This document shows positions 28,071 to 52,380 of a DNA stretch of 64,000 nucleotides, in pieces. The notes under the pieces are model-generated. The model did not search any database. It was not told the origin of the DNA and saw only the letters and a program-made list of their open reading frames with translations. Numbering within the stretch: position 1 is the first letter of the stretch; each line of letters opens with the position of its first letter. The DNA lies in contig CP158635.1 of assembly GCA_050273025.1 (NCBI GenBank), forward strand, positions 16,306,001 to 16,370,000, read 5' to 3'. A program made the translations under genes and the position numbers. Source of the stretch: Cenococcum geophilum. Taxonomy: Eukaryota.

Positions 28071-28379
28071 TGAAGTGACTTTAAGCTGACGTCTGCGTCT
28101 GTAGCTTCATTCACCGGTTATCGTAGTAAGCCATAGACTCACGCGAATATGTTTTCTGCATGGCATACTACTACTGTTAATTTGATTATCAATTTCTTAA
28201 ATAAAAACCTTATAGTAACCCAACCAAATATCATCCTCCCAAACAAATGTTATCCTCCCAATGAAATGTAAATCTGTTTTACTACTTGCTGCGGAGATCG
28301 TGAGGAAGGACATCGGCATCATCTTCGGCAACCCTTTCTTGAATTCCAATGGCCCACTGCCCCATCGAATGACATGGGT

Positions 28380-29258: not shown

Positions 29259-29373
29259 GCTCCTTTTGAGTGTATGATAATTTACGAGTAGAGAACTAAC
29301 TTGTGGGTTATTGTGGGTTATTGAAGGAAAGATCAGTTGCAGAACTGAAAATGCGAGGAGGACTCAGCTCTTG

Positions 29374-29381
29374 TTTAAATA
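29374..29381 (-). promoter_or_regulatory. Putative TATA box of the repeat-protein gene
   Basis: TATTTAAA on the minus strand ~115 bp upstream of the ATG. Confidence 0.45.
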
Positions 29382-30378
29382 CCCCGCCATTCCTCAATAA
29401 ATCCATCATCCTGGCTGTGTGAGAGTATGTCTAAGCACTAATTCGAAGAATTGGAGTCTAGTGGAAGACATATCTGCTGACATTCGACTCCACGATTCGA
29501 CGATTTCTCAATGGCTCGGGTGTAGCTCAAGCCACTTGCGGGGTCACGACAAAGCAAACCTCGCGAACGCAGTCGGTGGCTGCTAGCCAAGGCCCAGTAC
29601 CCATGCTGAAGCGTAAGAGTTACCTAGTATATTGATTGTATAGGACAGACACGCACCAGCGTGGTTTTCATTTTCAATATTGGCACTAATCAATATTAGC
29701 GAGTATTGGCGAGTACTGGATTTCCTCGGCTAACGCACGGTCTCACCTGACGCACGATTTTCCCGACCCCACTAAATCTATTTACAGTGGTGTTCACGGC
29801 TCGGCTGAGCGCCCGATCAGTCGCTGAGCCGCACGTGACGCATACAACCCCCGTCGACATTCGCGGGTATCGGAGGTCGGGGTTAGGCTTGGCATAACCT
29901 CGGGTTACGCACGACCCCCCAAGGTCCGCGACATATCGTCCAAATATCACCCCCCCCTTTTGGTGGTGGCCCCTACTTTTTAGACGCGTTTTTGAGGCCT
30001 AGGTTAGTACTAGGTTAGTATAGAGGACCTCGTCGCGCGCCTTCGACCTCATCGTCGCCTTAACAATCCATTTTTTAACCCTCTTCCTATTCTTATGCCC
30101 GCGCTAGCTCCTAGCTCGCGCGGGGCTTCTAGTTTTATATAAAACGGCCTACTATAATTCTAATTCTATAATATAGAGCTCTCTTCTTTTCCTCCTTTAT
30201 TAATATTTACGCGTTCGGTAGCTTTATTTACCTATACCCATACTATACTTACGCGTCTTCCCCCTAACCTCTTACGGAAATAAAGTCTTTTAAGAATCTT
30301 CTTACCCTATGGTCTACTTTATAGTCGAAAAAAGCCCCCCTAGCTTTCTCCTCCCCCTCTTCCTATAGCCTCTAGAAC

Positions 30379-32852
30379 GAATTTAAGGCCTAGATAGCAC
30401 GGCTATACAATATTTATAAGGCTTAGCGCTTAAAGAATACTATAAGGGCGTACAAGCCAAAGTAGAAAAAGTGGGAAGACTAGTGTATAAGATTAGAAGG
30501 CAATATAGACGGCGCCTAGGTAACAGAAGATAAGCTTTACCTATTTTTAAAGTAGTAAGTTATTAACTAAAAATTATAGGCTGCTAGCTATTAAAAACAG
30601 AAGTTAAAACAGAAAGAGATATAGAAAGATAGTAAGTGGGTAAAGAAGAGGTAGAAGACGGTTAAGCGGGTAAGGTAGCTAGAGGGGAAGTTAGCTATAG
30701 GGGCAGCCGTAGGGGTAGCTATAGGGGCAGCCATAGGCACAGGGGAGGAAGCTATAAAGGAGGAAGGGGAGATATAGGACGAGGAGGCCCTAGACGCCCT
30801 ATTTAATAAGATAGTCTAATACTTAGTTATAAATAGCTACGTCTCCGCTATTACCGAGCTTTATATATAGTAGTTAAAAGGTAAGACCTCGCAGCTACTA
30901 TAGGGGGCAAAGCTCTCAGTAGTACTAGATAGCGTCCGCTATAATAAGGACCGGATTTAACGCGTTAACTTTATTAATTAAGGCCTATTTATAATTACTA
31001 GCGGCTATAACGTTAAAGGGCTTAAAAAGGTAATTACTTAGTGCTAGGAGATAGGCTCTAAGATACTAGGTTTAGTTAAGTCTTACCTTTAAACTATAGC
31101 TAAGCATTTATTAGGTTTATATATACCCTACCTAGTCTATATAGCTACCGTTTTCTAACCTATTCCTTAGGCTATACTACTATTACCTATAGTAAAAGTA
31201 GATAAGACGTTTAGCTTGCTAACCTTATTTTTATTAAACTAGAGAATAAAGGGCCTAAACTAGATAAGTTAGCGCCGTGTATAATTATATTAATAATATA
31301 AGGGAAGCAGAATTAGTACGGTAAGGTTAAGTATATAGGCTATATACGGAACGCTAACCCTATCCTCTACCCCCTCTCTATAGTAACCTTTTACTTCTTT
31401 AACTACTAGGGTAAAGACGGCGCTAAGAGCTTCCTATCCTTTTAGTAGCTAAAGGACTACTATAACCTATACGTCTTCCCTAGCAGTATTAAAGTACCAT
31501 AATAGCCGCTAAGCTATTATATACAGTTTAAATAAAATAAAAAGATATTCTAGGGGGTAGGAATTTACTTAAAGAAGAAGACCTATAGCGCCTATAAGTA
31601 GAGCGTCTGGTATACTAAGCTTAGCGGCATTAAGGAGACCTAAATTAAATAGGCCGGACGCTGGAATATAGACGTGATAATAGGAGCCTACCTTAGCTAC
31701 CTACCCTATATATTTATACGGTTGATTACCGGCTTCCTAAAGAAAGGAAAGGGCTACTTTCTTCCCTACATATGGGAGGTGCTAAAGGAGGCCCTTTATT
31801 TAAAGATATGGCCTAAGACTAATGTCTAGCTAAAACGCATAGAGGCCTACTATCTAGGTAGGGCTAATAATAAGGTTATATAGCTTAACCTTATAGGCTT
31901 AGGATTTCTACGCCTCCTTCGTATACTTAGGGTAATCCTATTATAGGACTTAGTAATCCTACGTAAGTAGTTCCCGCTCTACCCCCTATAGAAGGACCCC
32001 CTCTTTAGCTATAAGGAGTACTAAAGGTTTGCTATATAGGTAAAAAGCTTACTAGCTAATATAGTTACGCTAGATAAGCTAATAATACGGAAATACTAGC
32101 CTACCTATAAGGCCGTAGCTAAGCTAAAATATAAGGCCGCGATCTCTAAAATAAAGGGGGTTTAATTATATATATAGACGATCTTAAAACGCCTTAGCAA
32201 AATAGAAAGGTTATTAGCATTATTCGCACCTATATAGATTTAGTAAGAGAAGATAGGTATCTAAATAGGGCCTATAGAGTCTGTATATCTACCTTTAGGC
32301 GAGCCTATACCATCTACTATAGCGTCTACTATATCCGCGCCGCCTACTCTGCTATCTATAATATCCATACTACCCGCTTAGCTGCTATCTATAATATCCA
32401 CACCGTCCGCTTAGCTATCTATAATATTCATACTATCTACTTAGCTGTCTATAATATCTATACCGCCTACTTAGCCGTCTACTATATCCGTATCACCCCT
32501 ATTAGCGTAGGTATAAGCTAATACTTAACTATCTCTCCTATTTATCCTTAACCTATAGGCGCCGCTAAGGAAATATAAAATGCTTTAAGGCGGTAATTTA
32601 GTCTTCTAGCTCTGGACTAAGTAGACTTTAGGGCTAGCGGATAGGCCGTTAATTAAAGCTCTTAATTGCTGCTAGGGGGTACGCTAGCGGGTTAACGGTA
32701 AGGCTATATTTTATAGCCGTCGCTATAAAATAATTAAGGATATAAGACGGCGTGTAGAAAACGGTACGGCAAGAGATAAGAGATAGGCTATTAACTAGCT
32801 AGAATAGCTATAAGGTCAGCGTTCTTTAGATTGGCTTTATAAGAATATTTAA
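30379..32852 (+). pseudogene. CryptonF-type tyrosine recombinase (Ndc10-like core + GCR1_C), RIP pseudogene; 5' start not resolved
   Basis: De-RIP reading: KNTIRAYEPKQKEW, VTEDKLCLFL, NEGP, GKQNQHGKVEY, CPLS, KKTHSARK (HxxR), RAGRWN..MTGAYL, C-terminal LWTEWTLG..GPSIEALD..WG..WR; probable intron ~31110-31170. Confidence 0.85.
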
Positions 32853-32862
32853 ATAGTTATTT

Positions 32863-33210
32863 TACTATAGTAACTAAGACGCCTTAATATATAACTGCAC
32901 TATAGTAACTAAGACGCCTCTATATATAATTATACTATAGTAACTAAGACGCCTTAATATATAACTATACTGTAGTAACTAAGATATCTTAATATAGGAC
33001 TATACTAGTAACCAAGACGTTTTAATATAGGACTATACTATAGTAACCGAGATGCCTTAATATATAACTATACTATAGTGACCAAAACGTCTTAATATAG
33101 GACTATACTATATTAACCGAGACGCCTTAATATAGGACTATACTATAGTAATTAAGACGTCTTAATATAGGACTATACTATAGTAATTAAAACGCCTTAA
33201 TGTAGGAATA
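32863..33210 (+). repeat. 35 bp minisatellite, ~10 units, 3' of the C1 gene
   Basis: Unit ~TACTATAGTAACTAAGACGCCTTAATATA(TA/GG)ACTA; one unit is 33 bp; no spacers. Confidence 0.92.
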
Positions 33211-33705
33211 GAGCCCATTTAGGTATTATAAATTTAGAGTAATATTATATAACCATCTAGAAGTACTAATCTAATATAAATTATATACCTTTTCGCCTAA
33301 AATCGCGTGCGAAAGTACTTGGGGGCGGTTACTACGCGACCTTATATAGGGTTCGGGCGCGTTATTAATAGGGGTAGCCCTAACCTCGTATTAACCCAGG
33401 TCGTAACCGCGCTAAATTAGCCCCCCCGATATGTGATAGATATCTACAGCCAAGCCTATAGCCAAGCCGTGGACATCTATCACATATTAGGGGGGCTGAT
33501 TTGGCACAGTTACGACCCGGGTTAATACGAGGTTAGGGCCATCCCTACTAATAACGCGCCTAAACCCCATATAAGGTCGCGTAGCAATCGCCCCTAAGTA
33601 CTTTTACACGCGATTTTAGGCGAAAAGGTATATAATTTATATTAGATCGGTACTTCTAGATGGTTATATAATATTACTCTAAATTTATAATACCTAAACG
33701 GGCTC

Positions 33706-34053
33706 TATTCCTACATTAAGGCGTCTTAGTTGCTATAGTATAGTCCTATATTAAGACGTCTTAATTACTATAGTATAGTCCTATATTAAGGCGTCTCGGT
33801 TAATATAGTATAGTCCTATATTAAGACGTTTCGGTTACTATAGTATAGTTATATATTAAGGCGTCTTAGTTACTATAGTATAGTCCTATATTAAAACGTC
33901 TTGGTTACTAATATAGTCCTATATTAAGATATCTTAGTTACTATAGTATAGTCGTATATTAAGGCGTCTTAGTTACTATAGTGTAATTATATATAGAGGC
34001 GTCTTAGTTACTATAGTGCAGTTATATATTAAGGCGTCTTAGTTACTATAGTA
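33706..34053 (-). repeat. 35 bp minisatellite, mirror copy in C1b
   Basis: Reverse complement of 32863-33210. Confidence 0.9.
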
Positions 34054-34063
34054 AAATAACTAT

Positions 34064-36537
34064 TTAGATATTCTTATAAAGCCAATCTAAAGAACGCCGA
34101 CCTTATAGCTATTCTAGCTAGTTAATAGCCTATCTCTTATCTCTTACCGTACCATCTTCTACACGCCGTCTTATATCCTTAATTATTTTACGGCGACGGC
34201 TATAGAATATAGCCTTACCGTTAACCCACTAGCGTACCCCCTAGTAGTAATTAAGAGCTTTAATTAACGGCCTATCCGCTAGCCCTAAAGTCTACTTAGT
34301 CTAGAGCTAGAAGACTAAATTACCGCCTTAAAGCATTTTATATTTCCTTAGCGGCGCCTATAGGTTAAGGATAAATAGGAGAGATAGTTAAGTATTAGCT
34401 TATACCTACGCTAATAGGGGCGATGCGGATATAGTAGATGGCTAAGTAGGCGGTATAGATATTATAGACGGCTAAGTAGATAGTATAAATATTATAGATA
34501 GCTAAGCGGACGGTGCGGATATTATAGATAGCGGCTAAGCAGGTAGTATGGATATTATAAATAGTAGAGTAGGTAGCGCGGATATAGTAGACGCTATAGT
34601 AGACGGTATAGGCTCGCCTAAAGGTAGATATACGGACTCTATAGGCCCTATTTAGATACCTATCTTCCCTTACTAAATCTATATAGGTGCGAATAATGCT
34701 AATAACCTTTCTATTTTGCTAAGGCGTTTTAAGATCGTCTATACGTATAATTAAACCCCCTTTATCTTAGAGATCGCGGCCTTATATCTTAGCTTAGCTA
34801 CGGCCTTATAGGTAGGCTAGTATTTCCGTATTATTAGCTTATTTAGCGTAACTATATTAGCTAGTAAGCTTTTTACCTATATGGTAAACCTTTAGTACTC
34901 CTTATAGCTAAAGAGGGGGTCCTTCTATAGGGGGTAGAGTGGGAACTACTTATATAGGATTACTAAGTCCTATAATAGGATTACCCTAAGTATATAAAGG
35001 AGGCGTAGAAATTCTAAGCCTATAAGGTTAAGCTATATAACCTTATTATCAGCCCTACCTAAATAGTAGGCCTCTATACGTTTTAGCTAGACGTTAGTCT
35101 TAGGCTATATCTTTAAATAGAGGGCCTCCTCTAGCACCTCCTATGCGTAGAGAAGAAAGTAGCCCTTTTCTTTCTTTAAGAAGCCGGTAATCGACCGTAT
35201 AAATACATAGGGTAGGTAGCTAAGGTAGGCTCCTATTATCGCGTCCGTATTCCAGCGTTCGGCCTATTTAATTTAGGTCTCCTTAACGCCGCTAAGCTTA
35301 GTATACCAGACGCTCTACTTATAGGCGCTATAGGTCTTCTTCTTTAAGTAAATTCCTACCCCCTAGAATATCTTTTTATTTTATTTAAACTGCGTATAAT
35401 AGCTTAGCGGCCGTTGCGGTATTTTAATACTGCTAGGGAAGACGTATAGGTTATAGTAGTCCTTTAGCTACTAAAAGGATAGGAAGCTCTTAGCGCCGTC
35501 TTTACCCTAGTAGTTAAAGAAGTAAAAGGTTACTATAGAGAGGGGGTAGAGGATAGGGTTAGCGTTCCGTATATAGCCTATATACTTAACCTTACCGTAC
35601 TAATTCTGCTTCCCTTATATTATTAATATAATTATACACAGCGCTAACTTGTTTGGTTTAGGCCCTTTATTCTCTAGTTTAATAAAAATAAGGTTAGTAA
35701 GCTAAACGTCTTATCTACTTTTACTATAGGTAATAGTAGTATAGCCTAAGGAACGGGTTAGAAAACGGTAGCTGTATAGACTAGGTAGGGTATATATAAA
35801 CCTAATAAATACTTAGCTATAGTTTAAAGGTAAGACTTAACTAAACCTAGTATCTTAGAGCCCATCTCCTAGCACTAAGTAATTACCTTTTTAAGCCCTT
35901 TAACGTTGTAGCCGCTAGTAATTATAAATAGGCCTTAATTAATAAAGTTAACGCGTTAAATCCGGTCCTTATTATAGCGGACACTATCTAGTACTGCCGA
36001 GAGCTTCGCCCCCTATAGTAGCTGTAAGGTTTTACCTTCTAACTACTATATATAAAGCTCGGTAATAGCGGAGACGTAGCTATTTATAACTAAGTATTAG
36101 ACTATCTTGTTAAATAGGGCGTCTAGGGCCTCTTTATCCCATATCTCCCCTTCCTCCTTTATAGCTTCCTTCCCTATGCCTACGGCTGCCCCTACGGCTG
36201 CCCCTACGGCTGCCCCTATAGCTAACTTCCCCTCTAGCTGCCCTACCCGCTTAACTATCTTCTACCTCTTCTTTACCTACTTACTATCTTTCTATATCTC
36301 TTTCTGTTTTAACTTCCATTTTTAATAGCTAGCAGTCTATAATTCTTAGTTAATAACTTACTGCTTTAAAAATAGGTAAAGCTTATCTTCTATTACCTAG
36401 GCGCCGTCTATATTGCCTTTTAGTCTCGCGCACTAGTCTTCCTACTTTTTCTACTTTAGCTTATACGCCCTTGTGGTATTCTTTAAGCGCTAAGCCTTAT
36501 AAATATTGTATAGCCGTGCTATTTAGGCCTTAAATTT
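34064..36537 (-). pseudogene. CryptonF-type tyrosine recombinase, C1 copy b, RIP pseudogene
   Basis: Mirror of 30379-32852. Confidence 0.85.
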
Positions 36538-37292
36538 GTTCTAGAGGCTATAGGAAGAGGGGGAGGAGGAAGCTAGGGGGGCTTTTTTTGACTATAAAGT
36601 AGACCATAGGGTAAGAAGATTCTTAAAAGACTCCATCTCTGTAAGAGGTTAGGGGGAAGACGCGTAAGTATAGTATAGGTATAGGTAAATAAAGCTACCA
36701 AACACGTAAATATTAATAGAGGAGGAGAAGAAGAGAGCTCTATATTATAGAATTAGAATTATAATAGGCCGTTTTATATAAAACTAAAAGCCCCGTATAA
36801 GCTAGGAGCTAGCGCGGGTATAAGAATAGGAAGAGGGTCAAAAAATAGATTGTCGAGGCGACGATGAGGTCAAAGGCGCGCGACGAGGTCCTCTATACTA
36901 ACCTAGTACTAACCTAGGCCTTAAAAACGCGTCCAAAAAGTAGGGGCCACCACTAAAAGGGGGGGGTGATATTTGGACGATATGTCGCGGACCTTAGGGG
37001 GTTGTGCGTAACCCGAGGTTATGCCAAGCCTAACCCCGACCTCCAATACCTTTAAATGTCTTTACCCCCGCTAATCGAGTCGCTAATGCGCGCGTACTAT
37101 TGGCCTATTGGGCCAGCTATGCGCCTATGTATTTACCCTATGCGGTAAGGTCACTTATCCACGTCGCTGAGCGGTTAGTAGGTAGGGTAGGTATACTTTC
37201 TCTACCTCTCCTCCCCGGTCTATATCTGCGTATATATAAAAAATAGGAACCCCCCTAGGGCGCCGCTTCTCCAGCAGCGTCCTATCTTAAAA

Positions 37293-39534
37293 ATGGCGTT
37301 AATTAGTCGCGTAGAGATTAACGTCGCGAATAATGCCAAACTACGCGCTAACGCGTAGAGCATTCTCGCCCTTACGCGTGCCGAGAGGCCTAAAAACACG
37401 TCTCTAAATTATAAGCCGAAGTAGAAGGAGTTTAAGGTAGGTAGCTAGGTGCTTTACGGAGTAGTATACTTATAGCTAACGCGCGTCTTTCTAGGCCTTT
37501 TATAAGAAGAAGCAGTACTATAATAATAATACCGTTATAGAAGAAAAGCTACTCCTTTTCCTTATTAAGGAGGTTATAGGCCGGCCACTAAAAGTAAAAA
37601 GCCGTAAGGCCAGTAATAATATACCCTAGGATGAGACGCGGCTCTTCTAGCGCTTAGTTCGCGGCTATATTATGGCCCTAACGGACTTTTATTAGGCGTA
37701 GAAGGCTATAGGGATAAATAGCCACTAGTTCCTATAGGAGGATAATATTTAGGAGTACCTAAAGATTCTATAACGGAGGGACGCGTAGTAGGAAAAGGAC
37801 TAGTTCGCGGATAAGGGTAGAGATATATTGCTTAACGGATATACGGAGGACGAGTTTAAGAACGTCTGCCGCTAGCTATAGGCCCGCGGAGACTCCTTGC
37901 CGGAATGCTACCTCCGCATGCTTATAGATATCCTACTAGGCTACTATATGCTTACCCGCGGTGGCGACAGGCGCTCTACTAAGATCTTAGACCTATTTAC
38001 CTTTAAGTTTAAGGGCGAAGGCCCTATGCGCTATATGCCCCTAATATTTACTATACGCGCTAGTAAGTAGAACTAGTATAGCCGCCTTAAAACTATTAGG
38101 GCTCTATATAATATAAAGCCGCTTATCTATATACTTAGTGGGCTAGCTTTTTACCTCTTATACCGCTAGGACCTTAGCAATAAGCTATTCCTAGACTTTA
38201 GTAAGCGGTTAGCGTGGTATAATATCCGCCTAATTAAGAGTAGTGCTAGGGACTGTAAGGCGGCCTTCTTATATAACTTATAGCGGGAGTAGGTTGCTAA
38301 GGCGTTTTAGTACGTTAGCGTCTTCTTATAGAAGAAGACCTATATTAGACGAAGCGCTAGCGCTAAGACAGTAGAGCTAAAAGGGGTTAGTAAGGACCAG
38401 ATTAGACGCGCTAGTAGGTAAAACTAGGAGCAAATGGTTGGCTACTACTTAAACTCGCTACTATAGGAGTTTATGCGGACGATAGCTGGCTATACGCCGT
38501 AGATAGGCTGCTTTGAAATTTATAGGGCAAGCGTCGCCCCCCCTAACGTACTACTATTAATAATCTAGCCAGAGCTAAATATCTAAAAGGGTTAGTTTAG
38601 CCCTTAGGTTGGCTAGATTAATAACCTTATAGCTATAGGCGCTATAAACCTCCTATTCTACCTTTAGGAGGTTATCTTATAGGACTTAGTAGTCCTCCGC
38701 AAAATGTTCTTAAGTAGCCCTATATAGAACCACCCGGTTTTTTAGTATAAGGCCTATCTACCCTTTACGCAGAAGGTTAAAGCCTACCTATAGTAAAAGG
38801 AAGAAGGCCCTAGCTAGCTATTAATACTCTACTAAGCCGTACTAGCTATTATGGACTGCCTAAAGACTATAGACGCCTAGAATAACTAGAGAGTATATAA
38901 GAATAATAAGAGAGTATATAAGCTGTAGGCGTTATTTAACCATATAGCTAAGTCCTAGTAGGCGCAGTCTTTGCAGCTTTAATTGCTTATGTCTAGTAGC
39001 CTTACCTTTTGGCTTAAGGTCCCTTTAGTACGTCTACTAATAGCACGTTTACTAGCGCCTCTATCTATCGCGGGATTAAGCTAGTATGCGTTAGCCCGGG
39101 CGAGCGCTATAGCTTCCCCTTTACCGGCGCCGCCGCAGCTATAGTTATAGCTGTAACTATAGCTGTAGTAAGGGCCTAAGTCTAAGCTTAAGCTTAAGCT
39201 CTAGCCTAAGCAGCCGCCCGTGTATTATATATACCATATAGTAAAGTCTATATAGGCCCTTTGGCGCAAGTAGACTAAGGGGCTTAGAGGTAATCCTTTT
39301 ATAGTAGCGCTAGATTCTAAATAGAGTAGTAAATAGCGGGCTAGCCGGCAGAATAAGCTCTAATAGTATTCCCTACGGCTTAAGGTTATTAAGGAGATTA
39401 AGCGGGTTATATAGGCCTAGAGGGTTAGTAAGGAAGCGGCTATATAGTAGGTTAATCTATAGTAGGAGTAGATGCAGTGCTTATTAGATTAGCTTTGTAA
39501 ACGGCTTTAAGTAAGTAGAAAAGCTTTTAAATAG
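37293..39534 (+). pseudogene. CryptonF-type tyrosine recombinase + GCR1_C (C2 unit 1), one intron 37437-37494, RIP pseudogene
   Basis: ATG at 37293; GTAGGT...GCTAAC...CTAG intron; de-RIP motifs RPKNT, VTEEKLLLFL, DKGRDTLLDGY, HYMLTRGGDRR, EGPTRC, GKQNQHGR, KKTHIGR, RRAGRWN..M.GCYL, LWREWTEGL.GNPS..ALD.KWG.KWR. Confidence 0.88.
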
Positions 39535-40268
39535 TATATATCTTTAAAATACTAAGGGGTCTTCTATTAAGTCTTCTATTAAAACCTTTATTTATAGCCC
39601 CCTAGGGGCTTATTTTAGTGCGGTATAAGTTTAGTAGGGTACTTATATAATAGCGGTGCCTAACTTAAAATATAAATATCTTTATTAACCTACGGCCAAT
39701 TCTTACCATTCTAGTGCGAGTAGAGAGCTCTTGGCCGGCTCTACGCATAGCGCTTAATAGGTATTAAGAGTGCGGCGTTGCTGGTGATTATAGATCGACT
39801 ATAGATATGGGGTAATATCCATATGCCGCTAAGCGCATGGGCCTCTTCGCTTGCAAAATCTAACTTAGTGGCTAATTTAGCTATATAAATCGAACTATAG
39901 ATATACTATTGGTATTTACGGCTTAGCTAAGCGCCTAATTAGTTGCTAAGCCGTATATAACGCATATAACCCCCATTAATATTCGCGGATATTTACAGCC
40001 GAGCCTATAGCTAAGCCGTAGACATCTTTAAATATCTTTACCCCCGCTAATCGAGTTACTAATACGCGCGTACTATTGGCCTATTAGGCCAGCTATGCGC
40101 CTATATATTTACCCTATGCGGTAAGGTTACTTATCTATATCGCTAAGCGGTTAGTAGGTAGGGTAGGTATGCTTTCTCTACCTCTCCTCCCTGGTCTATA
40201 TCTGCGTATATATAAAAAATAGGAACCCCCTTAGGGCGCCGCTTCTCTAGCAGCGTCCTATCTTAAAA

Positions 40269-42510
40269 ATGGCGTTAATTAGTCGCGTAGAGATTAATAT
40301 CGCGAATAATACCGAACTACGCGCTAACGCGTAGAGTATTCTCGCCCTTATATATGCCAAGAGGCCTAAAAATATGTCTCTAAATTATAAGCCGAAGTAG
40401 AAGGAGTTTAAGGTAGGTAGCTAGGTGCTTTATAAAGTAGTATACTTATAACTAACGCGCGTCTTTCTAGGCCTTTTATAAGAAGAAGTAGTACTATAAT
40501 AGTAATACTGTTATAGAAGAAAAGCTACTCCTTTTCCTCATTAAGGAGGTTATAGGCCGGCCACTAAAAGCAAAAAGCTATAAGGCTAGTGATAATGTAC
40601 TTTAGGACAAGACGCGGCTCTCCTAGCGCTTAGTTTATAGTTATATTACGGCCCTAATAGACCTCTACTAGGCGTAGAAGGCTATAGGGATAAATAGCCA
40701 CTAGTTCCTATGGGAGGATAATATTTAGGAGTACCTAAAGATTCTATAACAGAGGGATGTGTAGTGGGAAAAGGACTAGTTTATAGATAAGGGTAGAGAT
40801 ATACTACTTAACGGATATATAGAGGACGAGTTTAAGAACGTCTACCGCCAGCTATGGGCCCACGGAGACTCCTTGCCGGAATGCTACCTCCGCACGCTTG
40901 TAGATATCCTACTAGGCCACTATATACTTACCCACGGCGGCAACAGGCGCTCCGCTAAGATCTTAGACCTATTTACCTTTAAGTTTAAGGGTAAAGGCCC
41001 TACGCGCTATATGCCCCTAATATTTACTATATACGCTAGTAAGCAGAACTAGTATAGCCGCCTTAAGACTATTAGGGCTCTATATAATAAGAAGCCACTT
41101 ATCTATATACTTAGCGGGCTAGCTTTTTACCTCTTATACCACTAGGACCTTAGTAACGAGCTATTCCTAGACTTTAGTAAGCGGTTAGTGTGGTATAATA
41201 TCCGCCTAATTAAGAGCAGTACTAGGGACTATAAGGCGGCCTTCTTATATAACTCGCAGCAGGAGTAGGTTGCTAAGGTGTTTTAGTATATTAGCGTCTT
41301 CTTATAGAAGAAGACCTATATTGGATAAAGCGCTAGCGCTAAGATAGTAGAGCTAAAAGGGGTTAGTAAGGACTAGATTAGACGCGCTAGTAGGTAGAAC
41401 TAGGAGCAGATGGTTAGTTGCTACTTAAACTTGCTACTATAGGAGTTTATACGGACGATGGCCGGCTATATACCGTAGATAGGCTGCTTTGAGATTTGTA
41501 GGGCAAGCGTTACCCCCCCTAACGTACTACTATTGACAATCTAGCCAGAGCTAGATGTCTAGAAGGGTTGGTTTAGCCCTTAGGTCGGCCAGATTAACGA
41601 TCTTATAGCTATAGGCGCTATAAACCTCCTATTCTACCTTTAGGAGGTTATTCTATAGGACTTAATAGTCCTTTGCGAAATATTCCTAAGCAGCCCTATA
41701 TAGAACCACCTAGTCTTCTAGTATAAGGCCTATCTACCCTTTACGCGGAAGGTTAAAGCCTGCCTATAGTAGGAGGAAGAAGGCCCTAGCTAGCTATTAA
41801 TACTTTACTAGGCCGTGCTGGCTATTGTGGACTGCCTAAAGACTATAAACGCCTGGAATAACTAGAGAGTATATAAGAATAATAAGAGAGTATATAAGCT
41901 ATAGGCGTCGTTTAACCGTATAGCTGAGTCCTAGTGGGCGCAGTCTTTACAGCTTTAATTGCTTATGTCTAGTAGCCTTACCTTTTAGCTTAAGGTCCCT
42001 TTAGTATATCTATTAACGGCACGTCTACCGGCGCCTCTATCTATCGCGGGATTAAGCTAGTATGCGTTGGCCTAGGTAAGCGCTATAGCTTTCCCTTTAC
42101 CGGCGCCGCCGCAGCTATAGCTATAGCTATAACTATAGCCGTAGTAAGGGCCTAAGTCTAAGCTCGAGCTTAAGCTCCAGCTTAAGTAGCCGCCTGTGTA
42201 TTGTATGTGCTATATAGTAAAGTTTATACGGGCCCTTTAGCGCGAGTGGACTAAGGGGCTTAGAGGTAATCCTTCTGTAATAGCGCTAGATTCTAAATAG
42301 GGCAGTAAATAGCGGGCTGGCCGGTAGAATAAGCTTTAATAGTATTCCCTATAGCTTAAGGTTATTAAGGAGATTAAGCGGGTTGTATAGGCCTAGAGGG
42401 TTAGTAAGAAAGCGGCTATATAGTAGGTTAATTTATAGTAGGAGTAGATATAGTGCTTACTAGATTAGCTTTATAAATGGCTTTAAGCAGGTAAAAAAGC
42501 TTTTAAATAG
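40269..42510 (+). pseudogene. Crypton C2 recombinase, unit 2
   Basis: Colinear with unit 1 at offset +2976. Confidence 0.88.
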
Positions 42511-43244
42511 TATATATCTCTAAAATACTAAGGGGTCTTCTATTAAGTCTTCTATTAAAACCTTTATCTATAGCCCCCTAGGGGCTTATTTTGGTACGGT
42601 ATAAGTTTAATAGGGTACTTATACAATAGTAGTGCCTAACTTAAAATATAAATATCTTTATTAACCCACGGCCAATTCTTATTATTCTAGTGCGAGTAGA
42701 GAGCTCTTGGCCGGCTCTACGCATAGCGCTTAATAGGTATTAAGAGCGCGGCGTCGCTAGTGATTATAGATCGACCGTAGATATAGGGTAATATCTATAT
42801 GCCGCTAAGCGCACAGGCCTCTTCGCCTGTAAAATCTAACTTAGCGGCTGATTTAGCTATATAAATTAAACCGTAGATATACTATTAGTATTTATGGCTT
42901 AGCTAAGCGCCCGATTAGTCGCTAAGCCGTATATAACGCATATAACCCCCGTTAATATTCGCGGATATCTATAGCTAAGCCTGCAGCCAAGCCGTGGACA
43001 TCTTTAAATGTCTTTACCCCCGCTGATTAAGTCGCTAATACGCGCGTACTATTGGCCTATTGGGCTAGCTATGCGCCTATATATTTACCCTATGCGGTAA
43101 GGTTACTTATCCGCGTTACTGAGCGGTTAGTAGGTAGGGTAGGTATGCTTTCTTTACCTCTTTTCCCTGGTTTATATCTGCGTATATATAAAAAATAGGA
43201 ACCCCCCTAGGGCGCTGCTTTTCTAGCAGCGTCCTATTTTAAAA

Positions 43245-45486
43245 ATGGCGTTAATTAGTTGTGTAGAGATTAACGTCGCGAATAATGCTAAACTACGCGC
43301 TAACGCGTAGAGTATTCTTGCCCTTATATGTGCTAAGAGGCCTAAAAATATGTCTCTAAATTATAAGCCAAAGTAGAAGGAGTTTAAGGTAGGTAGCTAG
43401 GTGCTTTATAGAGTAGTATACTTATAGCTAACGCGCGTCTTTCTAGGCCTTTTGTAAGAAGAAGTAGTACTATAATAGTAATACCGTTACGGAAGAAAAG
43501 CTACTCCTTTTCTTTATTAAGGAGGTTATAGGTTAGCCACTAAAAGCAAAAAGCTATAAGGCTAGTGATGACGTACCCTAAGACGAGACGCGGCTCTCCT
43601 AGCGCTTAGTTCGCGGCTATATTACGGCCCTAATGGACCTTTACTGGGCGTAGAAGGCTATAGGGATAAATAGCCACTAGTTCCTACGGGAGGATAACGT
43701 TTAGGAGTATCTAAAGATTCTATAATAGAGGGACGCGTAGTAGGAAAAGGACTAGTTTGCGGATAAGGGTAGAGATATACTGCTTAACGGATATATAAAG
43801 GACGAGTTTAAGAACGTCTGCCGCTAGCTATGGGCCCGCGGAGACTCCTCGCCGGAATACTACCTTCGCATGCTTATGGATATCCTACTAAGCCACTATA
43901 TACTTACCCGCGGCGGTAACAGGCACTCCGCTAAGATCTTAGACCTATTTACCTTTAAGTTTAAGGGCGAAGGCCCTACGCGCTATATGCCCCTAATATT
44001 TACTATATGCGCCGGCAAGTAGAACCAGTATAGCCGCCTTAAGACTATTAGGGCTTTATGTAATAAGAAGCTACTTATTTATATACTTAGCGGGCTAGCT
44101 TTCTACCTCTTATACCGCTAGGACCTTAGCGACGAGCTATTCCTAGACTTTAGTAAGCGGTTAGTATAGTATAATATCCGCCTAATTAAGAGCAGTGCTA
44201 GGGACTATAAGGCGGCCTTCTTATATAACTCGCAGCGGGAGTAGGTTGCTAAGGCGTTTTAGTATATTGGCGTCTTCTTATAGAAGAAGACCTATATTAA
44301 ATAAAGCGCTAGCGCTAAGATAGTAGAGCTAAAAGGGGTTAGTAAGGACTAGATTAGATACGCTAGTAGGTAGAACTAGGAGTAGATAGTTAGCTGCTAC
44401 TTAAACTCGCTATTATAGGAGTTTATGCGGACGATGGCTGGCTATACGCCGTAGATGGGCTGCTTTGAGATTTGTAGGGTAAGCGTTGCCCCCCCTAACG
44501 TACTACTATTGACGATCTGGCTAGAGCTAGACGTCTAAAAGGGTTGGTTTAGCCCTTAGGTTGGCTAGATTAATAACCTTATAGCTATAGGCGCCACGAA
44601 CCTTCTATTCTATCTTTAGAAGGTTATTTTATAGGACTTAGTAGTCCTCTGCGAAATGTTTCTAAGTAGCCCTATATAGAACTACCCGGTCTTTTAGTAT
44701 AAGGCCTATCTACCCTTTACGCGGAAGGTTAAAGCCTGCCTATAGTAGGAGGAAGAAGGCCCTAGCTAGCTATTAATACTCTACTAGGCCGTGCCGGCTA
44801 TTGCGGACTGCCTAAAGACTATAGACGCCTAGAATAACTAGAGAGTACGTAAGAACAATAAGAGAGTATATAAGCTATAGGCGTTGTTTAACTATATAGC
44901 CGAGTCCTAGTGGGCGCAGTCTTTGTAGCTTTAATTGCTTATATCTAGTAGCCTTACCTTTTAGCTTAAGGTCCCTTTGGTATATTTACTAACAGTACAT
45001 CTACCGGCGCTTCTATCTATTGCGGGATTAAGCTAGTATACGTTGGCCCGGGCGAGCGCTATAGCTTCCCCTTCGCCGGCGCCGCCGCAGCTATAGCTAT
45101 AGCCGCAACTATAGCCGCAGTAAGGGCCCGAGTCTAAGCTTAAGCTTAAGCTCTAGCCTAAGCAGCCGCCCGTGTATTGTATATACCGCGCAGTAAAGTC
45201 TATACGGGCCCTTTAGCGTAAGTAAACTAAGGGGCTTAGAGGTAATTCTTTTATAGTAGCGCTAGATTTTAAATAGGGTAGTAAATGGCGGGCCGGCTGG
45301 CAGAACGAGCTTTAATGGTATTCCCTACGGCTTAAGGTTATTAAGGAGATTAAGCGGGTTGTGTAGGCCTAGAGGGTTAGCGAGGAAGCGGCTATATAGT
45401 AGGTTAATCTATAGCAGGAGTAGATATAGTGCTTACTAGATTAGCTTTATAAACGGCTTTAAGTAGGTAGAAAAGCTTTTAAATAG
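43245..45486 (+). pseudogene. Crypton C2 recombinase, unit 3
   Basis: Colinear with unit 1 at offset +5952. Confidence 0.88.
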
Positions 45487-46220
45487 TATATATCTCTAAA
45501 ATACTAAGGGGTCTTCTATTAAGTCTTCTATTAAAACCTTTATCTATAGCCCCCTAGGGGCTTATTTTAGTGCGGTATAAGTTTAGTAGGGTACTTATAT
45601 AATGGCGGTACCCAACTTAAAATATAAATATCTTCATTAACCTACGGCTAATTCTTACTATTTTAGTGCGAGCAGAGAGCTCTTGGCTGGCTCTACGTAT
45701 AGCGCTTAACAGGTGTTAAGAGCGCGGCGTCGCTAGTAATTGTAGATTGACTATAGATATGGGGTAATATCTATATGCCGCTGAGCGTATAGGCCTCTTT
45801 GCCTGCAAAATCTAACTTAGCGGCTGATTTAGCTATATAAATCGAACCATGGATATACTATTGGTATTTACGGCTTAGCTAAGCGCCCAATTAGTTACTA
45901 AGCCGTATATAATGTATATAACCCCCGTTAATATTTATAGATATCTACGGCTAAGCCTACAGCCAAGCCGTGGACATCTTTAAATGTCTTTACCCCTGCT
46001 AATTAAGTCGCTAATACGCGCGTACTATTGGCCTATTGGGCCAGCTATGCGCCTATATATTTACCCTATGCGGTAAGGTTACTTATCCGCGTCGCTGAGC
46101 GGTTAGTAGGTAGGGTAGGTATACTTTCTCTACCTCTCCTCCCTAGTCTATATCTGCGTATATATAAAAAATAGGAACCCCCCTAGGGCGCCGCTTCTCT
46201 AGCAGCGTCCTATCTTAAAA

Positions 46221-48462
46221 ATAGCGTTAATTAGTCGTGTAGAGATTAACGTCGCGAATAATGCTAAACTACGCGCTAACGCGTAGAGTATTCTCGCCCT
46301 TACGCGTACTAAGAGGCCTAAAAATATGTCTCTAAATTATAAGCCGAAGTAAAAGGAGTTTAAGGTAGGTAGCTAGGTGCTTTATAGAGTAGTATACTTA
46401 TAGCTAACGCGCGTCTTTTTAGGCCTTTTATAAGAAGAAGCAGTACTATAATAGTGATACCGTTATAGAAGAAAAGCTACTCCTTTTCCTTATTAAGGAG
46501 GTTATAGGCTGGCTATTAAAAGTAAAAAGCTATAAGGTTAGTAACGATATACCTTAAAACGAGACACGGCTCTCCTAACGCTTAGTTCGCGGCTATATTA
46601 TAGCCCTAATAGACCTCTACTAGGCGTAGAAGGCTATAGGGATAAACAGCCACTAGTTCCTATAGGAGGATAATATTTAGGAGTACCTAAAGATTCTATA
46701 ACGGAGGGACGCGCAGTAGGAAAAGGACTAGTTCGCGGATAAGGGTAGAGATATACTGCTTAACGGATATATAGAGGACGAGTTTAAGAACGTCTGCCGC
46801 TAGCTATAGGCCTGTAGAGACTCCTTGCCGGAATACTACCTCCGTACGCTTATAGATATCCTACTAGGCTACTATATACTTACCCGCGGCGGCGACAGGC
46901 GCTCCGCTGAGATCTTAGACCTATTTACCTTTAAGTTTAAGGGCGAAGGCCCTACGCGCTATATGCCCCTAATATTTACTATACGCGCCGGTAAGTAGAA
47001 CTAGTATAGCCGCCTTAAGACTATTGGGGCTCTATGTAATAAGAAGCCGCTTATTTATATGCTTAGCGGGCTAGCTTTCTACCTCTTATACCGCTAGGAC
47101 TTTAATAACGAGCTATTCCTAGACTTTAGTAAGCGGTTAGTGTAGTATAATATCCGCCTAATTAAGAGCAGTGCTGGGGACTGTAAGGCGGCCTTCTTAT
47201 ATAACTTGTAGCGGGAGTAGGTTACTAAGGCGTTTTAGTATATCGGCGTCTTCTTATAGAAGAAGACCTATATTAGACAAAGCGCTGGCGCTAAGATAGT
47301 AGAGCTAAAAGGGGTTAGCGAGAACTAGATTAGACGCGCTAGTAGGTGGAACTAAGAGTAGATGGTTAGCTGCTACTTAAACTTACTACTACGGGAGTTT
47401 ATACGGATAATGGCCGGCTATACGCCGTAGATAGGCTGCTTTAAGATTTATAGGGCAAGTGTTGCCCCCCCTAACGTACTACTATTGATAATCTAGCCAG
47501 AGCTAGATGTCTAAAAGGGTTGGTTTAGCCCTTAGGTTAGCTAGATTAACGACCTTATAGCTATAGGCGCCATAAACCTCCTATTCTACCTTTAGGAGGT
47601 TATCCTATAGGACTTAGTAGTCCTCCGCGAAATATTCCCAAGTAGCCCTATATAAAACTACTTAGTCTTTTAGTATAAGGCCTATCTACCCTTTACGCGG
47701 AAGGTTAAAGCCTACCTATAGTAGGAGGAAGAAGGCCCTAGCTAGCTATTAATACTCTATTAGGCCGTGCTGGCTATTATAGACTGCCTAAAGACTATAG
47801 ACGCCTGGAATAACTAGAGAGTATATAAGAATAATAAGAAAGTATATAAGCTATAGGCGTTATTTAACTGTATAGCTAAGTCCTAGTGGGCGCAGTCTTC
47901 GTAGCTTTAATTGCTTATATCTAGTAGCCTTACCTTTTAGCTTAAGGTCCCTTTGGCACGTTTACTAACAGTATATCTACTAGCGCCTCTATCTATCGCG
48001 GGATTAAGCTAGTATACGTCGGCCTGGGCGAGCGCTGTAGCTTCCCCTTTACCGGCGCCGCCGCAGCTATAGCCGCAGCCGTAACTATAGCTATAGTAAG
48101 GGCCCGAGTCTAAGCTTAAGCTTAAGCTTTAGCCTAAGTAGCCGCCTATATATTATATATGCCGCGCAGTAAAGTCCGTATAGGCCCTTTAGCGTAAGTA
48201 GACTAAGGGGCTTAGAGGTAATCCTTTTATAGTAGCGCTAGATTCTAAATAGGGTAGTAAATAGCGGGCTAGCTGGTAGAACAAGCTCTAATAGTATTCC
48301 CTATGGCTTAAGATTATTAAGGAGATTAAGCGGGTCGCGTAGGCCTAGAGGGTTAGTAAGGAAGCGGCTATATAGCAGGTTAATCTATAGTAGGAGTAGA
48401 TATAGTACTTACTAGATTAGCTTTATAAACGGCTTTAAGCGGGTAAAAAAGCTTTTAAATAG
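46221..48462 (+). pseudogene. Crypton C2 recombinase, unit 4
   Basis: Colinear with unit 1 at offset +8928; ATG mutated to ATA. Confidence 0.88.
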
Positions 48463-49196
48463 TATATATCTCTAAAATACTAAGGGGTCTTCTATTAAGT
48501 CTTCTATTAAAACCTTTATCTATAGCCCCCTAGGGGCTTATTTTAGTGCGGTATAAGTTTAGTGGGGTATTTATATAATGGCGGTGCCTAACTTAAAATA
48601 TAAATATCTTTATTAACCTACGGCCAATTTTTACCATTCTAGTGCGAGTAGAGAGCTCTTGGCCGGCTCTACGCATAGCGCTTAATAGGTATTAAGAGCG
48701 CGGCGTCGCTGGTAATTGTAGATTAACTGTAGATATAGGGTAATATCTATATACCGCTAAGCGCACGGGCCTCTTCGCCTGCAAAATCTGACTTAGCGGC
48801 TAATTTAGCTATATAAATTAAACCATGGACATACTATTAGTGTTTACGGCTTAGCTAAGCGCCTAATTAGTTGCTGAGCCGCATATAACGTATATAACCC
48901 CTATTAATATTCGCGGATGTTTATAGCTGAGCCTGTAGCTAAGCCGTGGATATCTTTAAATATCTTTACCCCTGCTAATTAAGTCGCTAATACGCGCGTA
49001 CTATTGGCCTATTAGGCCAGCTATGCGCCTATATATTTACCCTATGCAGTAAGGTCACTTATTCACGTCGCTAAGCGGTTAGTAGGTAGGGTAGGTATGC
49101 TTTCTCTACCTCTCCTCCCTAGTCTATGTCTGCGTATATATAAAAAATAGGAACCCCCCTAAGGCGCCGCTTCTTTAGCAGCGTCCTATCTTAAAA

Positions 49197-51422
49197 ATGG
49201 CGTTAATTAGTCGCGTAGAGATTAATATTATAAATAATACCGAACTACGCGCTAACGCGTAGAGTATTCTCGCCCTTACGTATGCTAAGAGGCCTAAAAA
49301 TACATTTTTAAATTATAAGCCAAAGTAGAAGGAGTTTAAGGTAGGTAGCTAAGTGCTTTACAGAGTAGTATACTTATAGCTAACGCGTGTCTTTCTAGGC
49401 CTTTTATAAGAAGAAGTAGTACTATAATAGTAATACCGTTACGGAAGAAAAGCTACTTCTTTTCCTTATTAAGGAGGTTATAGGCTGGCCACTAAAAGCA
49501 AAAAGCCGTAAGGCTAATAATAATGTACCCTAGGACAAGACGCGGCTCTCCTGGCGCTTAGTTTGCGGCTATATTACGGCCCTAATAGACCTTTACTAGG
49601 CGTAGAAGGCTATAGGGATAAATAGCCACTAGTTTCTATGGGAGGATAATATTTAGAAGTACCTAAAGATTCTATAACGGAGGGACGCGTAGTAGGAAAA
49701 GGACTAGTTCGCGGATAAGGGTAGAGATATACTACTTAATGGATATATAGAGGATAAGTTTAAGAATATCTGCCGCCAGCTATGGGCCCGCGGAGACTCC
49801 TCGCCAGAATGCTACCTCCGCACGCTTGTGGATATCCTACTAGGCCACTATATGCTTACTTATAGTGGCGATAGGCGCTCTGCTAAGATCTTAGACCTAT
49901 TTACCTTTAAGTTTAAGGGCGAAGGCCCTACGCGCTATATGCCCCTAATATTTACTATACATACTAGTAAGTAGAACTAGTATAGCCGCCTTAAGACTAT
50001 TAGGGCTCTATATAATAAGAAGCCGCTTATCTATATACTTAGCGGGCTAGCTTTTTACCTCTTATACTATTAGGACCTTAGCAACAAGCTATTCCTAAAC
50101 TTTAGTAAGCGGTTAGCGTAGTATAATATCCGCCTAATTAAGAGTAGTGCTGGGGACTATAAGGCGGCTTTCTTATATAACTTGTAGCGGGAGTAGGTTG
50201 CTAAGGCGTTTTCTTATAGAAGAAGACCTATATTAGATAAAGCGCTGGCGCTAAGATAGTAGAGCTAAAAGGGGTTAGCGAGGACTAGATTAGATACGCT
50301 AGTAGGTAAAACTAGGAGTAGATGGTTAGCTATTACTTAAACTCGCTACTACGGGAGTTTATACGGACGATAGCTGGCCATATACTGTAAATAGGCTGCT
50401 TTAAGATTTATAGGGCAAGCGTTGCCCCCCCTAATGTACTACTATTAACGATCTAGCTAGAGCTAGATATTTAAAAGGGTTAGTTTAGCCCTTAGGTTGG
50501 CTAGATTAATAACCTTATAGCTATAGGCGCTACGAACCTCCTATTCTACCTTTAGGAGGTTATCTTATAGGACTTAGTAGTCCTTCGCGAAATGTTTCTA
50601 AGCAGCCCTATATAGAACTACCTAGTCTTCTAGTATAAGGCCTATCTACCCTTTACGCGGAAGGTTAAAGCCTACCTATAGTAGGAGGAAGAAGGCCCTA
50701 GCTAGCTATTAATACTTTACTAGGCCGTACTAGCTATTACGGACTGCCTAAAGACTATAGACGCCTGGAATAACTAGAGAGTATATAAGAATAATAAGAG
50801 AGCATATAAGCTGTAGGCGTTATTTAACCGTATAGCCGAGTCCTAGTAGGCGCAGTCTTTATAGCTTTAATTGCTTACGTTTAATAGCCTTACCTTTTAG
50901 CTTAAGGTCCCTTTGGCACGTTTACTAACGGCACGTCTATTAGCGCCTCTATTTATCACAGGATTAAGCTAGTATATATTGGCCCGGGTAAGCGCTATAG
51001 CTTCCCCTTTACCGGCACCGCCGTAGCTATAGCTGTAGCTGTAACTATAGCTGTAGTAAGGGCCTAAGTCTGAGCTTGAGCTTAAGCTTTAGCCTAAGCA
51101 GCCGCCCGTGTATTATATATGCCGCGCAGTAAAGTCTATATAGGCCCTTTAGCGTAAGTAGACTAAGGGGCTTAGAGGTAATCCTTTTATAGTAGCGCTA
51201 GATTCTAAATAGGGCAGTAAATAGCGGGCTAGCCGGTAGAATGAGCTCTAATAGTATTCCCTACGGCTTAAGGTTATTAAGAAGATTAAGTGGGTTGCGT
51301 AGGCCTAGAGGGTTAGTAAGGAAGCGGCTATATAGTAGGTTAATCTATAGTAGGAGTAGATATAGTACTTACTAGATTAGCTTTATAAACGGCTTTAAGC
51401 GGGTAGAAAAGCTTTTAAATAG
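49197..51422 (+). pseudogene. Crypton C2 recombinase, unit 5 (16 bp deletion at ~50210)
   Basis: Colinear with the other units apart from the deletion. Confidence 0.88.
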
Positions 51423-52380
51423 TATATATCTCTAAAATATTAAGGGGTCTTCTATTAAGTCTTCTATTAAAACCTTTATCTATAGCCCCTTAGGGGCTTA
51501 TTTTAGTGCGGTATAAGTTTAGTAGGGTACTTATATAATAGCGGTGCTTAACTTAAAATATAAATATTTTTATTAACCTATAGCTAATTCTTACCATTCT
51601 AGTGCAAGTAGAGAGCTCTTAGCTGGCTCTACGTATAGCGCTTAATAGGTGTTAAGGGCGCGGCGTTGCTAGTAATCGTAGATCAACTGTGGATATAGGG
51701 TAATATCTACATACCGCTAAGCGTATGGGCCTCTTCGCCTGCAAAATCTAACTTAGCGGCTGATTTAGCTATATAAATTAAACCGTGGACATACTATTGA
51801 TATCCCCTCCTTAGCGAGTTACAGATTCGCTACGCGTATCCAATTTCGCCTGGTTGCCACCAGCTGTATATAGTAATTATAGTGAACGGCTGTGGCTGCA
51901 CGTAAGGTCCTTTTTGGTTACCCTGGAGAATCGCCTTGGTTGGCCAGGAGAATTAAATTAAAGACGACGCTTCCTTTTCTCTCCTTTAACTATGCCTCCA
52001 TTATGCCCGCCAAAACGCGAATACAACGCTGTCTCTGCAGAGGGGTTGACAAAGTTTAGCAATATCGTACAGGTGGAAGCCTCACGATATTTGACAAAGA
52101 TCACAACACTGCGGAGGAAGGCCGCCAGAAGTAATGTTCTTGCAGCCAAGTACAGCCTGTACGACCTCCAGTGTCCCCCCCCCCTATATACGCGCAGCAC
52201 ACACACCTAATTTCGCTACGTCTGCAGCTAAATTAGTATGTAGAGCTAGCAGGAAGGGGTGTAGTACATGGCCAGGGCTTAAGCCACGGCCTATAGCTCG
52301 GATTTGAAGCTGTTCTCTCTTACCAAAAGTTATAATATTGCCTTTAGATCCTAATGTTTTACCCTATTCCCTTCTTTAAT

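Follow-up and report, generated by a model that had tools for sequence, protein, structure and literature searches.

The genome of Cenococcum geophilum contains a 7,205-bp palindrome formed by two mirror-image copies of one Crypton-like transposon (C1), inserted 37 bp apart in a second Crypton-like transposon (C2) that is itself repeated in tandem. The window, the whole stretch of DNA analyzed here, is 64,000 nt long (assembly GCA_050273025.1, CP158635.1:16,306,001-16,370,000, forward strand), and all coordinates are relative to it. Both C1 copies lie at the edges of short sites that resemble the recombination core of C2, and both are dead through repeat-induced point mutation (RIP), most of it common to the two copies. 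We propose, at a probability of about 0.55, that the second C1 copy arose by recombinase-mediated local re-integration 37 bp from the first, with the recombinase acting in trans. The parts of the locus are as follows.

29788..51797, plus strand: C2 tandem array of five 2,976-bp CryptonF-like units; the palindrome interrupts unit 1, and unit 5 has a 16-bp deletion.
29788..29866, plus strand: first 79 bp of C2 unit 1, split off by C1 and not RIP-mutated.
29867..33439, plus strand: C1 copy 1, 3,573 bp, a RIP-degenerate CryptonF-like element; limits from the empty units and from 22 other copies.
32863..33207, plus strand: 35-bp tandem repeat, about 10 copies, in the 3' noncoding part of C1 (Tandem Repeats Finder); mirrored at 33709-34053 in copy 2.
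33440..33476, plus strand: 37-bp C2 hairpin core between the C1 copies, in its original orientation by comparison with empty units.
33477..37049, minus strand: C1 copy 2, 3,573 bp, the reverse complement of copy 1 save for RIP-type transitions.
37050..39909, plus strand: remainder of C2 unit 1, beginning with the spacer and outer arm of core-like site B (CTTTAA-ATGTC); its first ~500 bp are under-RIPped.
39910..42885, plus strand: C2 unit 2, empty, the reference unit for Pfam and motif matches; empty hairpin at 39978-40036.
42954..43012, plus strand: empty 59-bp inverted repeat of unit 3 with core-like sites A and B; equivalents at 39978, 45930, and 48906.

The arms of the palindrome (29856-33450 and 33466-37060) are 3,595 nt each, stand 15 nt apart, and are 95% complementary. 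An ungapped comparison over their full length gave 191 differences and no indels; 190 of the differences are transitions (C/T or G/A), with 97 in one arm and 93 in the other. Within the 3,573 bp of C1, the two copies differ at 184 positions, again with no indel. The C2 array has a period of 2,976 bp (direct-repeat spacing and self-BLAST) and comprises five whole units, with junctions at 39910, 42886, 45862, and 48838 and pairwise identities of 0.90 to 0.915. Taking both C1 inserts out of unit 1 leaves 79 + 37 + 2,860 bp, or exactly 2,976 bp. Matched against the empty units, the two 3,573-bp inserts lie at the equivalent position in either arm of a 59-bp hairpin, in opposite orientation; the 37-bp hairpin core remains between them at 33440-33476, and the outer 6-bp spacers, TCGCGG and CTTTAA, are kept and differ as an empty site predicts. 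A preliminary description of this DNA had drawn the same anatomy (palindrome, paired inserts, hairpin core, differing flanks, and exact restoration of unit length), and our comparisons confirm it. Its "unit 1" is indeed a whole unit, although solely because the array starts 68 bp to the left of the hairpin; a BLAST search of the window's left side found no C2 homology left of 29788. The motif GAYAT-N6-RTRTC occurs 23 times on the two strands of the window, against 0.71 expected from shuffles.

An assembly artifact, either a chimeric join of separate C1 copies or a fold-back read, would produce a similar picture. Contigs of four public runs (including X1, X5, and X9) were compared with window positions 28800-33700. 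C1 is a high-copy element that is hard to assemble, and among the contigs listed, a minor part of roughly 39,000 pieces, none bridges 33440-33476. A fold-back read, however, gives identical arms, whereas here the 191 differences are divided 97/93; the junctions and core equal the empty-unit hairpin base for base, with the unit length restored exactly; and a 212-nt contig from run X1, at single-copy depth (89.5, versus 84 in unique flanking sequence), matches the left arm without a difference. An artifact is hardly credible in our view. Joints that skip the 3,573 bp were also present among the contigs listed (three contigs in X5, one in X9, and one near-equivalent in X1). They may come from other empty copies of C2, and they are silent on alleles with one filled arm.

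The same runs speak to the abundance of both families. The summed contig depth of C1 was very high in 4/4 public runs, at 20,000 to 120,000, compared with 84 in the unique flank in run X1, and 10 contigs of run X5 break exactly at 29866, with a flank agreement of just 0.49. Because of this depth and these breaks, we regard C1 as a very-high-copy family with a fixed 5' end and varied flanks. C2 is multicopy as well, with five units in the window and, in runs X5 and X9, contigs that contain empty-site joints. The 35-bp repeats of C1 (32863-33207 and 33709-34053) have many length variants among the public-run contigs.

Both elements are Crypton-like and of the CryptonF type, a group defined by a recombinase together with GCR1_C (PMC3212892). 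Element frames were translated with stops read as X and searched against Pfam. C1 matched NDC10_II (E 4.3e-20, profile positions 34-316 of 317, ~31161-32021) and GCR1_C (E 1.7e-3; 19 bits, below the cutoff of 23; ~32574-32804), the latter in a frame and order that match its NDC10_II region. C2 matched the same two profiles, NDC10_II with E 4.4e-47 (positions 3-316 of 317, ~40681-41733 in unit 2) and GCR1_C with E 6.7e-7 (29.9 bits, cutoff 23, ~42217-42429 in unit 2). GCR1_C lies downstream of the recombinase in both elements, each with its two matches in one frame, and the preliminary description was right to call both families Crypton-like; the sole match of the other ten C1 and C2 frames in Pfam was a weak one, to DUF5933 in a second C2 frame (E 0.096, 13.4 bits, cutoff 27). 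C1 and C2 are separate families, since their recombinase regions are just 28 to 31% identical over ~310 amino acids. Neither has terminal inverted repeats or long terminal repeats (LTRs), and each has a short direct repeat common to one terminus and the flank.

RIP has marked both families heavily. In C1 and C2, TpA/ApT is 1.9 to 2.1 and (CpA+TpG)/(ApC+GpT) is 0.26 to 0.45, with ~100 in-frame stops per copy, whereas these indices are normal in the left flank (0.81 and 1.25 at 28000-29787). The relic of the C1 open reading frame (ORF) lies in the frame of 29856 and has 100 in-frame stops in copy 1. The presumed HxxR box reads T-Y-S-A-Y in 7/7 copies of C1; in C2 it reads T-Y-I-G/R-R, and unit 1 alone has kept the R codon. 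A change from H to Y at a CpA is of RIP type. RW and Y persist at their positions (GRW in C1, SRW in unit 4 of C2). The RIP-type polymorphic columns of the five C2 units comprise 276 CpG, 167 CpA, 100 CpT, and 27 CpC sites, and RIP in C. geophilum thus affects CpG besides CpA in this region (29788-51797).

To see where C1 integrates elsewhere, we scanned metagenome contigs for the C1 5' end, using a 30-nt pattern tolerant of RIP, which yielded 21 loci on 20 contigs with 22 C1 5' ends. All 22 further copies start at the same base. Four of the 22 ends are preceded by a C1 3' end and are head-to-tail C1-C1 junctions; the remaining 18 have AG at positions -2/-1 without exception, and no other position is conserved. 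The word GAYAT was found at -12 in only 1 of these 18 flanks (-12 or -11 examined), and C2 is absent from all metagenome C1 loci, with 0/18 non-tandem flanks lying in C2. The preliminary description had read C1 as an element specific for GACAT-N5G|ATGTC, often inside C2, with an integrase of defined target. The G at -1 survives, as it precedes the junction in all 18 non-tandem flanks. The rest does not: there is no extended target word at independent insertions, where the -2/-1 AG alone is conserved, and strict site specificity of C1 is refuted because the flanks of its other copies are unrelated, an outcome that the description itself had named as decisive.

The 3' flank was readable in two metagenome copies (GTAGT in L006, CTATA in L019); ATGTC follows both window copies, the C1 5' end is GTATC, and AG is also found at the C1 3' end. 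In the window copies, L006, and L019 alike, the crossover leaves the spacer of the target beside the C1 5' end and that of C1 beside its 3' end. The short repeat of C2 consists of TG plus an RTRTYC-type word on both sides (GTGTTC versus ATATCC, RIP-compatible). Like the Cryptons already known, C1 uses short microhomology and a fixed crossover point to integrate, as in the published model for these elements (PMC3212892, PMC9977147, PMC13465315). A crossover at one edge without spacer exchange suggests a single productive strand exchange or a very short overlap.

Several C1 copies in the metagenome contigs stand in head-to-tail arrays. One contig (L003 409-8028 and L004 2-4318) has five consecutive unit starts ~3.6 kb apart, and further arrays occur in L012 and L020, the latter with three copies. 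ORFs of at least 250 amino acids in the metagenome loci lie in the flanks, and none lies within C1. The window flanks recurred in these loci only as a 71-bp match to L011 and as a match of 27000-27428 to L021 (1005-1426, 82% identical). In L021 the latter stretch lies ~130 bp upstream of the C1 copy, and in the window it is ~2.4 kb to the left of the array; it is probably another repeat family.

When the 3' end of each element is joined to its 5' end, as in a circle, the two families show the same junction architecture. The C1 junction reads CCcCCGATAt-GTGATAG-gTATCGGaGG and the C2 junction CCGTGgACAt-ACTATTG-gTGTtCACGG; in both, 10-bp inverted arms (8/10 matched) surround a 7-bp spacer, and the element boundary falls at the edge between the spacer and the right arm. 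Seven matches to GTGGACAT with at most one mismatch occur in the de-RIP C2 unit, where shuffles gave a mean of 2.28 for the whole 2,976 bp, and six of the seven lie between -108 and +116 of the junction. These clustered matches form four sites, namely, the junction itself (J) and three that have a 6-bp spacer each and lie within ~110 bp on either side of it.

Site D, GTGGATAT-GGGGTA-ATATCCAC (de-RIP): 39804-39819, 42780, 45756, 48732, and 51692, ~100 bp before each unit junction.
Site A, GTCGACAT-TCGCGG-ATGTCTAC (de-RIP).
Site B, GTGGACAT-CTTTAA-ATGTC...

Sites A and B face each other, and the 59-bp "hairpin" is thereby two extra copies of the core of C2. The isolated first 79 bp of unit 1 hold the left arm and spacer of site A (GTCGACAT-TCGCGG), and the 37-bp core consists of the right arm of A, a 15-nt center, and the left arm of B. 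The preliminary description had called the hairpin arms the recombinase-binding sites of C2; they do copy the C2 junction core, and by that sequence likeness they are candidate binding sites. Its reconstructed hairpin letters were right except in the left arm, given as ATGTCCAC: all five units have T at the sixth base, and the arm reads ATGTCTAC after de-RIP. The C in ATGTCCAC had been deduced from symmetry, and the position is a CpA hot spot.

C1 occupies the spacer/arm edge of A on the plus strand and that of B on the minus strand, and D is unoccupied in 5/5 C2 units. Counting both strands, D, J, A, and B offer eight such edges, and G precedes only J(+), A(+), and B(-). The use of the A(+) and B(-) edges, and with it the inverted orientation of the two C1 copies, follows from the requirement for G before the C1 insertion point. 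With ~297 AG/GG/CT/CC dinucleotides per kb, the de-RIP C2 unit has ~880 candidate positions, and by a hand estimate the chance that one random insertion falls on one of the three G-preceded core edges is ~0.003. Chance is therefore an unlikely reason for the position of C1 at a C2 core edge, a judgment drawn from one locus. We suggest that the similarity of sites A and B to the core of C1 itself attracted the element.

The history of the two arms can be read from their mutations. Five metagenome copies of C1 served as the outgroup, and RIP-susceptible sites were defined by polymorphism among the other copies. The arms are 94.9% identical to each other and 84 to 89% identical to the five other copies; C1 is 3,573 bp long in both arms, and the five range from 3,502 to 3,603 bp, none of them 3,573. 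At 794 RIP-susceptible sites, neither arm is mutated at 309, one at 125, and both at 360, for an odds ratio of ~28, compared with 3.4 to 3.8 for pairs from different loci and 6 to 10 for tandem neighbors (all by hand). The per-site RIP load is 0.55 in the arms and 0.38 to 0.48 in the other copies. With baseline parallelism allowed for, ~310 to 350 of the ~420 mutations per arm predate the split of the arms (by hand), and about three quarters of the RIP load is common to both.

Heavier independent RIP was considered as the cause of the common mutations and rejected, as it would need ~0.81 of the susceptible sites to be mutated per arm and the measured value is 0.55. The window alone is uninformative about RIP before the duplication: the arms share 94 in-frame stops, but the five C2 units share 63, and the C2 CpA sites hit in one unit number 19, those hit in two 37, in three 39, and in four 72, a rise toward saturation among the five units. 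Because of the common RIP load seen against the outgroup, either a C1 that was already dead gave rise to the second arm, or a single homogenization ran through the full length of the arms. Positions that differ between the arms show a fairly even spread (chi-square p 0.08), which argues against patchy conversion; one identical stretch, of 218 bp, exceeds the expected length (P 0.003). That an active C1 arrived twice, independently, as the preliminary description had it, does not fit arms that are each other's closest relatives and have most of their RIP mutations in common.

The first insertion is older than the mutation of its host. In the isolated 79 bp of unit 1, the RIP (T/A) allele is present at 0/29 RIP-type polymorphic columns, compared with 17 to 24 in units 2 to 5, and at unit coordinates 117-600 it is present at 8/76 columns in unit 1, compared with 27 to 40 in the other units. 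Since both the isolated 79 bp and the next ~480 bp of unit 1 are under-mutated, C1 was in place before C2 was RIP-mutated.

The second arm could have been made without any recombinase, by a single C1 integration followed by host repair or replication that copied it into the other arm, through fold-back at the 11-bp inner repeat or through gene conversion. Arms identical at the split are what such copying predicts, and the evidence is of that kind (no indel, 190 of 191 differences of RIP type, and a length of 3,573 bp unseen in other copies). With about three quarters of the RIP load in common, the copied sequence was unable to encode its own recombinase; both C1 copies lie in one unit of five, and the inner arms offer 11 bp of perfect homology. 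Yet the end of the copied tract would have to coincide, to within 1 nt, with the C1 5' end, as the complement of TCGCGG is absent and CTTTAA is kept. The closest microhomology on the outer side, ATGTC, is another 6 nt away, and its use would bring in the wrong spacer, and the outer homology of only 5 bp is poor for gene conversion. We consider this route unlikely.

An active C1 could also have integrated twice, early and independently, at A and at B, with one whole-arm conversion or repair event homogenizing the arms later, after heavy RIP. Closely spaced long inverted repeats do undergo arm-to-arm conversion. The AG/G rule then explains the exact boundaries and the orientations, and the excess of common RIP fits too. 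The conversion tract, however, must cover all 3.57 kb and end inside the element, the differences are evenly spread with no large blocks of zero or high divergence, and two insertions in the same unit among ten equivalent sites have a chance of 5/45 = 0.11 (by hand). Such a history strikes us as distinctly improbable.

A single event would be the integration of one double-stranded C1 circle into the extruded stem of the 59-bp hairpin or cruciform, the two C1 strands being divided between the arms and replication then yielding the palindrome. Equivalent positions, opposite orientation, and arms identical at birth all follow from one event, and the two different spacers would be retained as a partly paired bubble in the stem. 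The de-RIP consensus hairpin folds at -14.4 kcal/mol (z -3.8) and the empty hairpin of unit 4 at -12.2 kcal/mol (z -4.5), and among the single RIP-mutated hairpins just 1 of 4 empty copies folds clearly better than shuffles. Against this stand the staggered cleavage that tyrosine recombinases usually make, which predicts the C1 spacer at one outer junction although both arms show the ordinary configuration, the stem of only 5 bp beside the bubble, and the lack of any Crypton precedent in a keyword search of the open-access literature. We rate it as very improbable. A tandem C1 dimer at A followed by inversion against B was rejected: all three junctions fit on paper, but the 37-bp core is not inverted, and an inverted core would need non-RIP changes (read from the sequences).

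We therefore return to local re-integration by a recombinase. C1 and C2 are distantly related CryptonF transposons that would integrate as a circular form, and a first C1 would have integrated at a G-preceded spacer/arm edge of a C2 core site, either A or B. The source of the second copy would be the first one or another RIP-dead copy identical to it, which was excised or copied and then re-integrated. The recombinase would have been supplied in trans by another of the numerous genomic C1 copies, and such donors are plausible because the copy number of C1 is high. Copying stopped exactly at the C1 end, because the right arm keeps CTTTAA and not the complement of TCGCGG; we infer that a recombinase placed the second copy. 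Later RIP would have added ~90 private transitions to each arm.

Several observations weigh against this account. The common RIP load could also stem from one whole-arm gene conversion between two older insertions. The active recombinase donor is an assumption, no intact C1 ORF having turned up: the 7-copy de-RIP consensus keeps at least 49 stops in every frame. The place presumed to hold the catalytic H and R reads TYSAY in 7/7 copies of C1. Site A has GG where all 18 other non-tandem flanks have AG. The resemblance of A and B to the C1 core is modest (GACAT versus GATAT, ATGTC versus GTATC, and a spacer of 6 versus 7 nt), the left-arm word stands at the expected distance in 0/18 other insertions, and the proposed attraction by C2 sites is drawn from one locus. 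As noted, the center of the palindrome is bridged by none of the contigs listed.

C1 and C2 are additional members of CryptonF, and the locus follows known Crypton integration; it does not define a new specific-integrase system. C1 and C2 share with the CryptonF group, as described from fungi and oomycetes (Kojima and Jurka 2011, PMC3212892), a tyrosine-recombinase region with GCR1_C, the lack of terminal inverted repeats, and a short direct repeat between terminus and flank, which in C1 is AG plus a loose match to GTATC. The strictly kept repeat of C1 is only 2 bp (AG), in contrast to the 6-bp direct repeats of most fungal Cryptons (PMC3212892) and the 4 to 6 bp given for Crypton direct repeats or terminal words in the portions consulted of PMC3212892, PMC9977147, and PMC13465315. 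The junctions with 10-bp arms and a 7-bp spacer, the extra core-like sites, and the head-to-tail arrays of C1 and C2 also set them apart from the CryptonF account in the available text of PMC3212892. A tyrosine-recombinase core consists of two inverted binding arms around a 6- to 8-bp spacer (PMC3212892), and the C1 and C2 junctions, with inverted arms (8/10 matched) around 7 bp, have this form.

CryptonF-1_cRei of Chlamydomonas provided, by its authors' account, the first observations of an active Crypton (Lopez-Cortegano et al. 2023, PMC9977147). There, a terminal CACCG meets a target CAYCG, copies are gained despite excision, and rearrangements both at the copies and at their target sites are linked to the recombinase (PMC9977147). 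C1 likewise integrates between a short terminal word and a near-identical target; unlike CryptonF-1_cRei (PMC9977147), it offers historical evidence from RIP-dead copies, has a shorter target word, and has a mirror copy 37 bp away. Keyword searches of open-access literature found no description of Crypton tandem arrays, Crypton-in-Crypton insertions, or Crypton palindromes, nor any of inverted arms flanking a 7-bp spacer in a junction core, of clustered core-like sites, or of one Crypton in another's cores; such searches do not prove their absence.

Well-studied tyrosine recombinases act at cores such as loxP and FRT, and bacterial integrative elements integrate in tandem at att sites. Self-targeting of the C1 and C2 junctions would give tandem arrays in a similar manner. 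Unlike at those well-studied cores, most C1 targets have no recognizable left arm, and the crossover takes place at one spacer edge without spacer exchange. That the Crypton sites are full tyrosine-recombinase cores whose strands are exchanged at one edge of the spacer, that the four-core cluster of C2 is functional, and that C1 cross-recognizes it and is moved in trans even when dead is a wider reading that we hold to be doubtful.

Elsewhere in the window, an ~8-kb element is present in two RIP-mutated copies (4592-18208, plus strand, and 53155-61108, minus strand) with terminal direct repeats of ~420 to 440 bp that are 90% identical (4604-5020/17787-18203 and 53160-53601/60680-61122); it is probably an LTR retrotransposon. 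Its left copy holds a 5.3-kb insertion at 8022-13345. The sole stretch that is not RIP-mutated, 28000-29787 (GC content 0.50), adjoins the Crypton array on its left and holds an open 292-amino-acid ORF with no Pfam match (28380-29258, minus strand).

No class of eukaryotic DNA transposons is understood less well than the Cryptons. This locus and its 22 related copies provide testable substrates, namely, the crossover point AG|G and, in two families, a candidate core in which inverted arms flank a 7-bp spacer, together with a natural series of core-like sites of which some are filled and some empty. The duplication of a RIP-dead copy, exact at its ends, is relevant to the question of whether mobilization in trans can occur in Cryptons. 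If C1 does cross-recognize the cores of C2, one Crypton would be a parasite of the attachment sites of another. If the sites are full tyrosine-recombinase cores, they would furnish defined 22- to 23-bp substrates for a eukaryotic tyrosine recombinase, and the tandem arrays of Cryptons would be explained as self-integration at the junction core.

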